The translations under genes and the position numbers were made by a program. A stretch of 64,000 nt of DNA from Escherichia coli (GTDB taxonomy: Bacteria; Pseudomonadota; Gammaproteobacteria; Enterobacterales; Enterobacteriaceae), in NCBI RefSeq assembly GCF_048403405.1, contig NZ_CP183129.1. The stretch is one strand, 5' to 3'. This document shows, in pieces, positions 44,058 to 63,828 of this stretch (position 1 is the stretch's first letter; the number at the start of each line of letters is the position of its first letter). The notes beneath the pieces were generated by a model. The model was not told where the DNA came from, ran no database searches, and worked only from the letters and a program-made list of their open reading frames with translations.

Positions 44058-44692
44058 GTATTGCCATTTCCTTAACCCCACCTGATAACCCTTAGCCCAA
44101 TGGTGAGTGCGGAACTGTCAAACCCGCTCACCGGGCTGAGTTTCGATGTAGCAAGAATTATCTCCCTCCAGACCACCACGGAATATTCGGTAACACTGAA
44201 GGAACCTGTTTTTCACCATGTAGCCTTCGTTAATCGACACCTTTCTCAGACTGTAAAGTTGCTTAAGTGTTTTGACACATTATGATTATTAATAGTTGTA
44301 ATAAATCATTGAGTAACAATTGATAGGCAAAAACATATAGGATAATTCTAGTGTGATCTGTATTTTGTGTAACCTGGAAGTTAGTAAAATTCCTGGAGAT
44401 AATCAGAAAGGGAATTTCAAATAAGCATAATAATTTCCAGTGAAACTATTCGTCGATTTTAAGAAATGTCTGCTCAGGTATATCTACTGAGGGATGGTGT
44501 TGGTTGTAACACTGGTTAAAATAAACACACAAAAATAATCAAGATGTATATTTTAATCGACAAAAATAATTACTCGCGGAATTATTGATGGGTGTTAAAT
44601 AACACCGTTTAAATGTGATGTAAATCACAAATGTGACTGTAAAGAGGGTGCTGTAGATATAAATAAGAAGTACATGAGTGAATTTTAAATAG

Positions 44693-45096
44693 GGAAATAG
44701 TTTCTTGCTAAACAATTTATTGGTAATCAATCGCATGCGTTCTGGTTTGAGATAGATTACAGGTGTTACTACGCATAAAATTCATGGGTGGTATTATAAT
44801 CAAGTAGTTAACAGTAATAGTGAAAAATAATTTCTTGCGAAATTAGCGGCCCGTTTTGAATAAGTGTGTTCCGGAGTAATCCAGAACGCATGCTGCTTTA
44901 CATCTTTTTCAAGCCATATTGGTTAAGCAAAAAGAAGTAGAAATAATTTCCTGAGAAATTAACTCAACATTCTGAAACGGCCAGTTTTCTGAAATTACCA
45001 GAAGACCGAATACATTCATGCCTGAAGAATGGATTAGAAGAAACGAGACGGAAATAGATCTATTTATCCCTGCGGAAATAATTTCTGCTGAAATTG
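44693..45096. repeat. four dispersed copies of a ~22-bp motif (GAAATAATTTCyTGmgAAATT) in the kpsM upstream region
   Basis: Copies at 44693-44718, 44822-44849, 44940-44960 and 45074-45096, spaced 117-135 bp apart, all in the same orientation. Confidence 0.6.
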
Positions 45097-45190
45097 TTTG
45101 CGGCTATTAAAAAGGTCAAACCGTCTGACTAAATTTTATCCAGTTACAAACAAGTATTACCTCCAGTGTATTGGTAGCTGTTAAGCCAGG

Positions 45191-45198
45191 GGCGGTAG
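45191..45198 (+). promoter_or_regulatory. ops element (RfaH recruitment site) in the kpsM leader
   Basis: GGCGGTAG core, 33 nt upstream of the kpsM start codon, within ccaggggcggtagcatacc. Confidence 0.75.
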
Positions 45199-45230
45199 CA
45201 TACCTGAAGAGAATAGGATCACATCACCAA

Positions 45231-60207: not shown

Positions 60208-60227
60208 AAACTCATTCAGCGACAGCG

Positions 60228-61376
60228 TTAGTCTCGGTGATCTTCAATAACAGCCAGCAACAGTTTCAGGGTGCCGAACAGTAAGCAGCACACCAGTAAC
60301 CAGCAGGCGATCAAATAAGGGATATTTGGAAAAGACGATTCCTGCGGCAACTGTGGCGAACTGATCACTGACAGCACCTTGAGCTTACGAGCCGCTTCTA
60401 CACGGGTCTTTTCAATGGAGGTCAGGGTCAGTTTGTACAGCTCGGTGTTGAACTCTACTTTTGATTTGATTTCTTCAAAATCCACTGCCATACGGTTTAG
60501 CTTGTCACCCTGTGGCGCAGTGATTTTGCTTTTTTCTTCGTCAATTTGTGCCTGCAATGACTGAATCGCATTACGCGCACTCACAACTTGCGGGGCGTCC
60601 TCACGCAGATACGTCAGCAAGTTCCGCAGGTCCGCTTCCATCTGGATCTTCTGGCCCATCAGCGTATTCACTAACGTGCTCGCCGCCTGTGCCTGTGCCT
60701 GTGGATCCAGAACGTTGTTGTTGTCCTGATAAGAGAGCAATTCCGCTTTGCTGGCGTCCAGACGCTGGCGTGCCTTTTCCATCTCCGTTTCTGCAAAGGC
60801 AAGCTGGTCACGCGCGATGCGATGTGACATCTCATTGATAAAGCGCTCTGACTCTTTCAGCACGGTTTGGTTAAACTTAAGCGCAAACTCCGGGCTAAAG
60901 CCCTGCGTCTGAATATTCAGTAATCCGGTTTTATCGTCATACGAGACGTTGATACGGTCCTTGTAGTACTTCAGGAAGCCTTCTGCGGTTTCATCCTTGC
61001 TAAGATGATTAAGAAAATCGAGCCCGCTGTGGCTAAACGCTTCACGAAAATTTAGTTGCTTATCCAGCGCCGCCAGCATATCCGGCGAGTTGATGTACTC
61101 TTTCAGATACAACGCATCTTCTGCGGAACTGGGGTTAGAGGCACCCAGAAGCAGACCAAAATTCAGGCTGCCGCTGTTTAAATCATCCGAGCGTTTAATG
61201 GCGACTTTCGACTCGCTCATATAGCGAGGCTGGCTGAAGATAGCCAGATAGATCAGCAGCACCGCCATCGGTGCCAGAATGATGATTTTTGCCAGGTGCT
61301 TTTGGATATCTGCCAGTGAGATGGCAGACAGACGAGCACGCATCCAGGATACGGCAGACTTCACTTTTATCAACAT
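60228..61376 (-). CDS. kpsE: capsule export inner-membrane (polysaccharide co-polymerase type) protein KpsE
   Basis: 382-aa ORF with N-terminal TM helix, coiled-coil periplasmic region and C-terminal hydrophobic segment. Confidence 0.9.
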   Translation of the reverse strand: MLIKVKSAVSWMRARLSAISLADIQKHLAKIIILAPMAVLLIYLAIFSQPRYMSESKVAIKRSDDLNSGSLNFGLLLGASNPSSAEDALYLKEYINSPDMLAALDKQLNFREAFSHSGLDFLNHLSKDETAEGFLKYYKDRINVSYDDKTGLLNIQTQGFSPEFALKFNQTVLKESERFINEMSHRIARDQLAFAETEMEKARQRLDASKAELLSYQDNNNVLDPQAQAQAASTLVNTLMGQKIQMEADLRNLLTYLREDAPQVVSARNAIQSLQAQIDEEKSKITAPQGDKLNRMAVDFEEIKSKVEFNTELYKLTLTSIEKTRVEAARKLKVLSVISSPQLPQESSFPNIPYLIACWLLVCCLLFGTLKLLLAVIEDHRD

Positions 61377-61447
61377 GTAACGATTATCAAAGTTTCAGTG
61401 GGGCGCAAACTCAATGAGAGACTAACCTCTCGAACCCCGTTGCTTAA

Positions 61448-62431
61448 TTAGTCGAAAATGCGCACAAGGCCAGTGACTTTATTTGCCTTGTTGGTCACCA
61501 ATAACGTTGAGACGCGGTGCTTTTGCATTTTTTCTTCCGCTTCAATGATCATGGTGTCTTCCGGTAGCGTCAGCGGTTCACGTGTCATCATCTGCGCAGC
61601 CGTAGCGGATGTCAGAGAACCCTCTTTTTCCATAAAACGACGCAGGTCACCGTCGGTGATAATGCCCGCTAGCCCACCTTCTGCGTCTTCTACCATCACC
61701 ATTCCCTGGCATCCGCTGGTGATACGTTGAATCACGGTTTTAAATGACGCATCCAGCTGTACCGCAGGAACATCATGCTGCATGACATCAGCAACGCGGG
61801 TCAGCAGGCGACGACCTAATGAACCGCCCGGGTGATAGCGCGCAAAATCATTCGGCATAAATTTGCGTTGGTGGATCATGGCAATCGCCAGCGCATCGCC
61901 GATCGCCATCGTCAGCGTGGTAGACGTTGTTGGTGCAAGATTATTCGGGCAGGTTTCATTCGCCATGTGGAGTTCCAACACGGCATCAGCATTTTTCGCC
62001 AGCGTGGAATTTCCATTATTGGTAATGGCGATAATTCGATTGCCGAAATTTTTCAGTGAAGGAACTAGCTTGAGGATTTCATCCGTTTCACCGCTGGCAG
62101 AAATAAGGATCAGAAGATCGTAAGGCGTAATCATGCCCAGATCGCCATGGAAAGCTTCTGCAGGATGAATAAAGAAACTAGGCGTACCCGTAGAGGCCAG
62201 CGTCGCTGATATTTTACGACCGACATGCCCTGATTTACCCATTCCCGAAAGAATAACGTGCCCTTTACAGTTCATTATCAAATTAAGGACACGCTGGTAC
62301 TGCCCGGAATCCAGTTGTTTAGACAAGTTTTGTAATGCTGCGCTTTGTTCTGCCAGAGTCTGGCGAACAGAGGTAATTAGATATGGATCGATAGTACTGC
62401 TCTGGTCATCAGGTAAATGTCTTTCAGACAT
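61448..62431 (-). CDS. kpsF: arabinose-5-phosphate isomerase (capsule-specific)
   Basis: ORF track 61448..62467; likely start is the ATG giving MSERHLPDDQSST..., preceded by aaggag RBS; SIS and CBS domains. Confidence 0.9.
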   Translation of the reverse strand: MSERHLPDDQSSTIDPYLITSVRQTLAEQSAALQNLSKQLDSGQYQRVLNLIMNCKGHVILSGMGKSGHVGRKISATLASTGTPSFFIHPAEAFHGDLGMITPYDLLILISASGETDEILKLVPSLKNFGNRIIAITNNGNSTLAKNADAVLELHMANETCPNNLAPTTSTTLTMAIGDALAIAMIHQRKFMPNDFARYHPGGSLGRRLLTRVADVMQHDVPAVQLDASFKTVIQRITSGCQGMVMVEDAEGGLAGIITDGDLRRFMEKEGSLTSATAAQMMTREPLTLPEDTMIIEAEEKMQKHRVSTLLVTNKANKVTGLVRIFD

Positions 62432-63828
62432 ATCAGCTCCTTTGCACGGAAATAATGCCACAGTCACAACAAACCTGAACCCACTATAATTTATTTATGC
62501 TAAATCAATGGGTTGTAACAAAATTTTTAATGAATATAAAACCATGGTCAGTCCATGCTTATATGCAGGACTTATCACCTTCTTATTAAGTCGCAATGTC
62601 TCATGGAGGTGCGAAGACGCTGCAATATTACAGGCGAGAAAGGGAACCAAATTTTGCCCACCTATTTAACACACTCCTACATTATGAACAAGGAATTTAG
62701 GATTTTTATCATTTATTAAAATGTTTCCTACTTGACTATTAATGCCAAAAACAATTTATCAATTGATTATTTCCTTGTAAAAAAAGAACGTATGACTATG
62801 TTATTAATAAATAAAACACGCAAATAATGGTGATGTTGTTTTGTGATTAATTATTTAAGTGATTCATAATAAACAGGTTGACAATTTCTATGTAAAGAAG
62901 AGGAAAATAATAAAATTTTAGCGGTGACTATTGAGTGATATGATAGTTGTGGTGTTGATTATTTCTGGTAATGAATGCGGAATTAAATCTGGCCGGATTG
63001 TATTTTTGCTATATCTATTTTTCAGGAGATTATTATTAAATAGAAAAATAACAATGGTGATTATCTCCGGTTGAGCTGGAGTCACGTATGCCAGCGAGTG
63101 CTTTCTTCCGGGCCTTCCTTCACTTCAGAGAAAGAGCCTATGGAAAAGAGGCAATCATCAGGCTCTTTTTGAGTCATATGCGCCGATAATCAACTGTCTT
63201 GAACGTAAAAATTATGGAGCAACATGATGCTACGATTCATTTCACTCTTCGTTCTTTCTGAGCATTGCGTTCAGGATGGTCAGCAATTTACGCATACAGT
63301 CAACCAGCGCCACTTTTTTGGTTTTTCCGGGTGCTGGCAGATGCATGTAAAACGCCTCTTTCACCGGATTAAACCAGGTTACCACAAGCGCTGCCATGTG
63401 CAGGGCTGCTCTTGCCTCCGTACGCGCACTGGCGTCGTTCGGCCAGCAGATATGTGTGGGATAACAGGGATGTTATGTGAACTGAACTGTGTTTTGCTAG
63501 CGGGGGATGTTTATTGATGATTCGGGAGTGTTTAAGACCTGATGGCGTTATGCACCCAAGTTTATTTTATATAAAGATCCAAAAGCAAAAACCCGCCTTG
63601 TGGGCGGGTTCTTAAGAATTAGTGGTGCCCGGAATCGGAATGAAACTGATTGTATAACAAATTGTTTTATATAGATTATTTTGTATTTGTTGTTTTTGAG
63701 GCCACCAATGAGGCCCCCATGTGCAATTCGAATTCTTTTGACGCTATAATCCCTCTTTTTTGTGCTTTGCTGTAATCATTTGGTCTGGTTCGATATGCTG
63801 AATTGTGGAATCGTACTTAACGCGTTTG

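Follow-up and report, generated by a model that had tools for sequence, protein, structure and literature searches.

A compositionally layered K2 capsule locus in Escherichia coli, with an AT-rich serotype cassette between conserved export genes

We analysed a 64,000-nucleotide stretch of Escherichia coli DNA (NCBI RefSeq assembly GCF_048403405.1, contig NZ_CP183129.1), hereafter the window, in which positions 44058-63500 are the K2 (ksl) group 2 capsule locus. A mosaic base composition is a long-known, textbook property of such clusters. We consider it probable that the layered base composition of this locus, taken as a whole, reflects parts with different histories as well as different regulatory constraints. 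The region 1 genes (kpsFEDUCS) would be compositionally native to E. coli and kpsMT intermediate, and region 2 would belong to a pool of serotype cassettes, old and AT-rich, that is swapped among kps loci, with crossovers falling in the 3' end of each of kpsT and kpsS. Nor would region 2 be AT-rich simply as a fresh import awaiting drift to host composition. Superimposed on this mosaic would be a block shared with strain CFT073, running from the 3' end of glcA as far as the gene for the P4-like integrase beside pheV. Composition, boundaries, chimeric genes, the ops element and relatives in other genera were all computed here.

An unsupervised likelihood segmentation, blind to the annotation, placed change points in guanine-plus-cytosine (GC) content at 44181/2, 45159/60, 46477/8, 54559/60, 62247/8 and 63064/5, and so divided the window into seven segments.

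1-44181: 52% GC; left flank
44182-45159 (+): 32.9% GC; PR3 promoter and most of the kpsM leader
45160-46477: 44.3% GC; JUMPstart, kpsM and 5' kpsT
46478-54559: 30.4% GC; region 2 plus the 3' tails of kpsT and kpsS
54560-62247: 50.7% GC; kpsS to kpsF
62248-63064 (-): 33.0% GC; 5' kpsF and the PR1 regulatory region
63065-64000: 44.2% GC; IS110 remnant, pheV remnant and island start

The gene content underlying these segments was established from the annotation of the counterpart stretch in CFT073, the layout of open reading frames and Pfam.

44058-63574: whole kps insertion, lying between the stop codon of yghD and the downstream flank of pheV (K-12 comparison)
45231-46007 (+): kpsM, ABC-2 permease, region 3 (Pfam ABC2_membrane)
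46004-46675 (+): kpsT, ATPase, region 3 (Pfam ABC_tran)
46687-54319 (+): region 2, the K2 (ksl) cassette of five genes
46687-47082 (+): TagD-like, most likely a glycerol-3-phosphate cytidylyltransferase (Pfam cytidylyltransferase-like, E = 2e-24)
47098-48333 (+): TPR and LicD protein (Pfam)
48387-52187 (+): TPR-TagF-GT1 capsule polymerase, 1266 aa (PDB Cps3D 8qoy, E = 1e-249)
52290-53318 (+): XcbB/CpsF-family protein (PDB 9hvz, E = 4e-53)
53324-54319 (+): protein with no family match
54320-54480: convergence spacer between region 2 and kpsS, 20.5% GC, the most AT-rich stretch of the locus
54481-62431 (-): region 1, kpsFEDUCS, six open reading frames
54481-55719 (-): kpsS (Pfam Capsule_synth, E = 4e-91)
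55754-57781 (-): kpsC
57778-58518 (-): kpsU
58528-60204 (-): kpsD
60228-61376 (-): kpsE
61448-62431 (-): kpsF

The locus is ~100% identical over its full length to that of CFT073, with five mismatches in 19.4 kb, and to that of ATCC 25922. The serotyped O6:K2:H1 strain C 691-04A is likewise ~100% identical across the whole of 44058-63500, and this identity extends to region 2, the part that defines K2. The kpsFEDUCS operon, the convergent kpsMT, region 2 downstream of kpsMT and on the same strand, and the site between pheV and yghD (gspM) are those of a group 2 locus. The span 44058-63500 considered in the initial annotation nearly equals the inserted kps block (44058-63574), where K-12 instead has an unrelated spacer of ~100 bp. 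The ksl genes of the K2 capsule (PMC12488582) are the five found in region 2. The 131-aa product of the first of them is mislabelled in RefSeq as pantoate-beta-alanine ligase or FAD synthase; judged by its context, it is most likely the cytidylyltransferase that makes CDP-glycerol.

Gene by gene, the contrast is sharp. The flank (1-44057) has 52.1% GC and the yghD-kpsM intergenic region 36.0%; kpsM has 44.8% and kpsT 38.5% (41.9% together). Region 2 (46676-54319) has 30.7% overall, its genes ranging from 28.8 to 32.3% with 21-26% at third codon positions (GC3). The kpsFEDUCS genes have 50.2% (kpsS 45.7%, kpsC 51.8%, kpsU 54.5%, kpsD 51.8%, kpsE 49.6%, kpsF 48.7%), and the sequence upstream of kpsF has 33.8%. 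In 500-bp windows the flank averaged 52.1% GC (standard deviation 4.4, minimum 32.8%) and region 2 averaged 30.7% with a maximum of 35.4%, a value to which just 0.7% of the flank windows reach down. Region 2 differs strongly from the flank both in GC (chi-square 1199) and in codon bias relative to the 33 pooled flank genes (z = 4.7-5.6). Codon usage of kpsFEDUCS (z = -1.7 to -0.1) and kpsM (z = 0.5) falls within the flank distribution and that of kpsT (z = 2.9) is intermediate. The initial annotation had judged by eye that region 2 and both kps promoter regions are far more AT-rich than kpsMT, kpsFEDUCS and the flanking core genes. Feature GC and segmentation bear this out against kpsFEDUCS and the flank, which are E. 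coli-like, but kpsMT is intermediate and does not belong to the same AT-poor group. The compositional patchwork of the locus is thereby confirmed as real and statistically overwhelming. Flank intergenic regions (n = 14) average 41% GC with a minimum of 29%, and the two kps promoter blocks (978 and 817 bp) are distinctive by their length more than by their GC. The coding strand of region 2 also has a strongly positive GC skew, ~0.1 to 0.36 in most 500-bp windows, and region 1 is near zero.

The edges of the AT-rich segment were compared with the limits of homology between K types. A search of 5426 complete genomes found 2585 that match part of the span, and only 140 that match at least 80% of it. 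In other K types similarity ends at 46491-46582, within the last ~31 codons of kpsT, and resumes at 54542-54553, leaving the last ~20-24 kpsS codons K2-specific. These end points lie 14-105 bp (kpsT) and 6-17 bp (kpsS) from the compositional change points. Because the crossovers would fall inside their 3' ends, kpsT and kpsS both appear to be chimeras. The 5' part of kpsT is of E. coli type with 42.6% GC and its 3' 198 nt are of cassette type with 28.8%; the 3' 79 nt of kpsS have 26.6%. The KpsT body is 97-98% identical to that of other E. coli types, and the C-terminal tail shares 43% and 33% identity with Kluyvera K2-like loci compared to ~11% with other E. coli K types. In three further K types, region 2 has 30-33% GC. 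These alignments support the view that the compositional edges are recombination junctions, produced by cassette exchange between kps loci. The earlier proposal that region 2 was slotted between conserved export modules is likewise supported, since the homology and GC junctions coincide, the KpsT tail is Kluyvera-like, and the cassette is confined to the 140 genomes, other K types losing homology inside kpsT and kpsS.

The same data bear on whether protein composition, or weak selection on lowly expressed genes, produces the low GC as a side effect, implying neither transfer nor regulatory meaning. In keeping with this explanation, F, Y, M, I, N and K make up 35-43% of residues in the region 2 proteins (24% in the flank), and G, A, R and P are scarce. 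However, GC3, which does not depend on the protein, is 21-26% in region 2 compared to 57% in the flank; AT-richness is just as high in the non-coding spacer and in both promoter blocks; the boundaries coincide with the putative recombination junctions; and few of the genomes that match part of the span (140 of 2585) match most of it. We give this explanation almost no credence.

The leader of kpsM carries regulatory elements. A JUMPstart element lies at 45164-45202 (+) (Rfam RF01707, 53.6 bits compared to a gathering score of 35, E = 6e-10), and a pattern search located an ops site, GGCGGTAG, at 45191-45198, 32 nt before the kpsM ATG. The ops site is where RfaH is loaded in the kpsM leader (PMC9765446). 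Other Rfam matches (ceN22, P9 and Histone3) were far below their gathering scores and were dismissed, and a sigma-70 and terminator pattern scan of the leader found sites no commoner than in shuffled sequence. In K5, transcription of region 3 starts 741 nt upstream of kpsM (PMC8960920). By alignment, and if the K5 leader is the five-copy form of the palindrome array described below, we infer a PR3 start at ~44374 with a -10 element, TATTTT, at 44361-44366. The published PR1 start, 225 nt upstream of kpsF (PMC8960920; PR1 anatomy also in PMC5738388), corresponds to ~62656 here.

H-NS and SlyA footprints are known at both PR1 and PR3, together with a switch between 20 and 37 °C (PMC8960920), and the K2 capsule of CFT073 is thermoregulated, being expressed at 37 °C and not at 20 °C (PMC12488582). 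Chromatin immunoprecipitation sequencing in CFT073 showed that H-NS-StpA filaments coat the kpsM-region 2 transcription unit, and that RNA polymerase needs RfaH to get as far as 5.4 kb downstream, except when hns and stpA are deleted (PMC9765446). The H-NS coating and RfaH dependence thus come from experiments in CFT073, whose kps locus differs from that of the window at five positions. That the low GC of polysaccharide clusters reflects lateral transfer and permits H-NS silencing has been stated in general terms (PMC10433991). In the K2 locus, AT-rich DNA would allow H-NS-StpA filaments to form over the kpsM-region 2 unit and the two promoter regions, silencing them at low temperature, and expression of region 2 would then rely on RfaH loaded at ops/JUMPstart just upstream of kpsM. 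We infer that AT-richness may be maintained because of this H-NS and RfaH regulation, and not only inherited.

The initial annotation had taken the AT-richness of region 2 as consistent with acquisition from a low-GC donor. In its simplest form, region 2 would be a fairly recent acquisition from a low-GC bacterium, the composition of which it would still carry as a fading signature, and the atypical GC and codon usage of region 2 agree with this. A donor lineage of matching composition and close sequence was nevertheless not found. A polymerase-profile scan of one genome per species (100,044 species) gave nothing above 52% identity, although that scan returned no E. coli, Kluyvera or Citrobacter either, and a search of 5.8 billion proteins revealed no close low-GC donor. 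The nearest non-E. coli polymerases are 71%, 66% and 57% identical, and those at 71% and 57% reside in complete syntenic loci consisting of kpsM-kpsT, the five cassette genes and kpsS-kpsC-kpsD-kpsE. Overall, the K2-like relatives in Kluyvera and Citrobacter share 49-89% amino-acid identity. Their hosts were placed by exact matches of neighbouring core proteins: one locus (L013) belongs to Kluyvera georgiana and lies between nadR and ettA, and the other (L010) belongs to Kluyvera and lies next to mug, its protein cluster including Citrobacter members. In these hosts the core flanking genes have 52-60% GC, the export genes 41-58%, and the cassette genes 30-34% with a GC3 of 20-30%; the Kluyvera leaders contain ops and have 31-35% GC.

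Synonymous divergence (dS) is saturated for every gene in every pair among the three loci (E. coli, L010 and L013). Because dS is saturated and the cassettes are at 30-34% GC, low GC would have persisted through a full turnover of silent sites in GC-normal genomes. The fresh-import view therefore appears too simple, since the diverged Kluyvera and Citrobacter copies are just as AT-rich. For all 11 shared genes, cassette and export alike, L010 is nearer to E. coli than L013 is, which fits co-divergence of whole loci. Of 27 more distant loci, 26 have a polymerase gene with less GC than its surroundings, the deficit being ~20 points in Rahnella, Atlantibacter and Bergeriella and ~10 points in Pasteurellaceae, whose genomes have ~40% GC and still carry polymerases at 30-31%. 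Polymerase GC equals that of its genome only in low-GC hosts, namely Campylobacteraceae, Sulfurovum and Bacillaceae, a pattern that favours a donor of that kind. Collectively, these results make a recent low-GC donor possible but doubtful. The atypical composition on which the proposal was founded stands, and an ancient low-GC origin of the cassette is possible, but the donor story is unproven and probably oversimplified.

Several points weigh against our explanation of the layered composition. The best partial identities outside Enterobacteriaceae are in low-GC lineages (a Flavobacteriales metagenome-assembled genome at 52%, Sulfurovum at 45-48% and Campylobacteraceae at 43%), which mildly favours a low-GC origin and is also what a simple donor would predict. 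The GC of region 2 at codon positions 1, 2 and 3 (39.5, 29.6 and 23.3%) fits no single genome composition. It implies donor GC values of 20.5, 10.8 and 32.9%, respectively, under regression coefficients that are presumed to apply, and amino-acid bias confounds these values. The higher value from the third position than from the first two is what partial drift would give, and it points weakly to drift from a very AT-rich source. Equally, the cassettes could have diverged in unsampled low-GC bacteria and entered each of the three genera recently, by separate imports. Selection for AT-richness is conjectural. Finally, the block shared with CFT073 was compared at both ends and over the first 48 kb past the window, all but ~41 kb in its middle.

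The relation of the locus to the pheV pathogenicity island depends on the features at its right-hand end.

63242-63424 (-): IS110-family transposase remnant (annotation)
63575-63622 (-): pheV downstream flank, 48 bp with a terminator hairpin (K-12 comparison)
63623-63644 (-): pheV 3' fragment, 22 nt (19-22 nt), the distal direct repeat of the pheV island
63645-64000: start of the pheV pathogenicity island proper

On the left, K-12 homology to yghD ends exactly at 44056/7. On the right, 63575-63644 is 98.5% identical to the 3' end of K-12 pheV plus its flank. An ARAGORN scan of the whole window found no tRNA gene, the pheV remnant being seen only by comparison with K-12. Intact pheV lies at 3406225-3406300 in CFT073 and ~104.6 kb past the window end in MS 69-1. 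The initial annotation had placed the pheV boundary outside the window; this holds for the intact tRNA gene, but the 3' remnant is inside. The order is thus yghD, kps (44058-63574), the pheV flank and 3' repeat, the pathogenicity island, the P4-like integrase and intact pheV. Because the pheV 3' repeat lies between kps and the island, kps appears to occupy the original spacer between pheV and yghD, beyond the limits of the repeat-bounded pheV island.

Alternatively, kps could have arrived as cargo of the tRNA-integrated pheV island, in which case the mosaic is the internal structure of the island. The locus is conventionally counted in the 123-kb PAI-CFT073-pheV (PMC12488582), and in the lineage of the window kps and the island were apparently transferred together as one block. 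The direct repeat at 63623-63644 nevertheless separates the two. Genomes lacking kps match only the 70 bp of 63575-63644, at their tRNA-Phe, and some kps-positive genomes have an intact tRNA-Phe at this site and no island, an arrangement with kps adjoining pheV outside the island that was described by Arredondo-Alonso et al. (PMC10272209). No pheV-derived repeat was found between kpsM and yghD by comparison with K-12, and the annotation of 44058-63574 contains no integrase, only the IS110 remnant, the P4-like integrase adjoining intact pheV ~104 kb away. The kps block thus has neither the flanking repeats nor the integrase of its own that would be expected of a tRNA-integrated island, and we regard the cargo explanation as highly unlikely.

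Matches across 62432-63644 occur in many K types, and the IS110 remnant is present in all sampled kps-positive genomes regardless of K type and may be left over from when the kps block first arrived. Directly on the island side of the pheV remnant is a frameshifted AbiEii toxin pseudogene, from 63829, with a DUF6088 partner. An AbiEii/DUF6088 toxin-antitoxin pair was discussed as capsule-linked in a 2025 paper (PMC12488582). By the repeat boundary, the pair belongs to the island and not to kps.

Comparison with CFT073 revealed a second layer. Positions 1-40153 of the window are ~2.3% diverged from CFT073, with 20-60 mismatches per kb, and positions 40154-64000 differ by six mismatches in 23.8 kb (~0.03%), five of them inside the kps block. 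This drop in divergence places a left breakpoint as follows.

40154-40402: left recombination breakpoint, in the 3' end of glcA and the spacer before IS4
40403-41752 (+): frameshifted IS4 pseudogene
up to 44057 (+): truncated gspK and frameshifted gspL, then yghD/gspM (43521-44057); core-side flank travelling with the K2 block

The left flank is 100% identical to that of MS 69-1, TUM1226 and U1. In MS 69-1, the genes in the first 48 kb past the window match those observed in the CFT073 island, with one additional copy of IS110. The last 8 kb of the island are likewise nearly identical to CFT073, and divergence resumes inside the P4-like integrase gene beside pheV. The shared block between the two breakpoints therefore spans ~127.6 kb (MS 69-1 NZ_CP146675.1, 812,363-940,003) and includes IS4, the truncated gsp genes, kps and the pheV island, with backbone on either side 1.3-2.3% diverged from CFT073. 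The K2 block is also 100% identical in genomes whose left flank differs from that of the window by 1.2-1.7%. The simplest reading of these alignments is recent transfer of the whole locus between lineages by homologous recombination, and the pattern points to a recent import of the shared block from a lineage like sequence type 73 (ST73).

The kpsM leader contains a repeated element that is distinct from JUMPstart. Six 18-nt palindromes of 7-4-7 form, TAATTTC-N4-GAAATTA, occur within 44431-45096.

44431, 44567, 44698, 44828, 44944 and 45079 (+): palindrome starts, at a spacing of 116-136 bp

The palindromes sit in degenerate units of ~130 bp that are only ~53% alike, and Tandem Repeats Finder reported nothing in the leader. 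Matches with at most two mismatches are almost absent from the rest of the window; at up to three mismatches there are 20 in the window, compared to 4.3 expected. Among eight diverse E. coli group 2 leaders, the palindrome arms vary in 12 of 84 columns and the 4-nt centres in 18 of 24, compared to 305 of 867 in the remaining leader, so that the arms are conserved (Fisher test against the rest of the leader, p = 5e-5) and the centres hypervariable (p = 1e-4). Unit 4 (116 bp) is exactly lost in four of the eight leaders and is missing in many other K types, giving a copy number of five or six. If K5 is the five-copy form, transcription covers every copy, and the published H-NS footprint on the downstream side takes in copy 2. 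Folding of the leader RNA is stronger than that of shuffled sequence (z = -4.0), and 83% of cells are paired at the palindromes compared to 27-50% when the pairing is slid. A single covarying pair was found, from one lineage, and an RNA hairpin and a DNA operator are not separable on this evidence. We know of no convincing fit to the FNR, Fur, SlyA, LysR-type or RcsAB boxes. The accessible literature, which excluded two primary PR3 papers, yielded no description of the array. We suggest, tentatively, that the array is an undescribed cis-regulatory device whose arms are under purifying selection, and that it might lie behind the way the leader dampens transcription of regions 3 and 2, an effect that is known but unexplained. 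A dimeric regulator could use the copies as operators, H-NS could nucleate or bridge at them, or they could form hairpins in the RNA. If so, copy number (five or six) would tune capsule expression between K types.

Two further observations concern the left part of the window. Across 40403-43519, the type II secretion cluster is reduced to the gspK fragment, the frameshifted gspL and yghD, and UM146 and H9 keep an intact gspD-M here. At ~19460-29270 (CFT073 C_RS17605-C_RS17650) is a cluster encoding a fatty acyl-AMP ligase, an epimerase, an acyl carrier protein (40.6% GC), a serine palmitoyltransferase, LptF/LptG-like permeases and a lipopolysaccharide biosynthesis protein. Such a gene set resembles a lipid-export or sphingolipid-type module and would be unusual for E. 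coli.

E. coli switches capsule type by means of AT-rich serotype cassettes set between conserved export genes, and the AT-richness would place the operon under H-NS silencing and RfaH control. Silencing of this xenogeneic kind was reportedly treated by Navarre in 2006. What is refined here is that the junctions appear to lie inside kpsT and kpsS, that kps would stand outside the pheV island, that locus and island would travel in a CFT073-like block of ~128 kb, and that a low-GC donor is probably an oversimplification. These points are relevant to capsule typing tools, to the definition of island boundaries and to why polysaccharide cassettes stay AT-rich.

The K2 locus of the window resembles other E. 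coli group 2 kps clusters (K1, K5 and CFT073 K2; reviewed by the Roberts and Whitfield groups, PMC8960920) in having regions 1 and 3 convergent around a serotype-specific, AT-rich region 2, promoters PR1 and PR3, JUMPstart/ops ahead of kpsM, and a site between yghD and pheV. There is no essential difference, except that the chromosome backbone of the window is non-ST73. As in the low-GC O-antigen and capsule clusters that are under H-NS silencing and RfaH counter-silencing (PMC9765446), an AT-rich operon carries ops in its leader. Unlike those clusters, the locus is AT-rich only in part, the convergent region 1 being host-like with only its promoter AT-rich.

The Kluyvera and Citrobacter K2-like loci share with E. 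coli an identically ordered set of five region 2 genes flanked by kpsMT and kpsSC, ops ahead of kpsM, a region 2 of 30-34% GC and the type of KpsT tail. In contrast to the E. coli locus, they lack kpsF and kpsU, occupy other chromosomal sites (next to mug; nadR-ettA) and have no palindrome array in the leader. More distantly, Actinobacillus pleuropneumoniae (Cps3D, PDB 8qoy), Bibersteinia and Neisseriaceae also combine a TPR-TagF-GT polymerase with a TagD-like cytidylyltransferase in an ABC-transporter capsule locus, and their polymerase genes, at 30-35% GC, are below the host value as in E. coli K2. Their polymerases are only ~38-42% identical, and the E. coli locus, lying in a 50% GC genome, shows a much larger contrast with its surroundings than these loci do.

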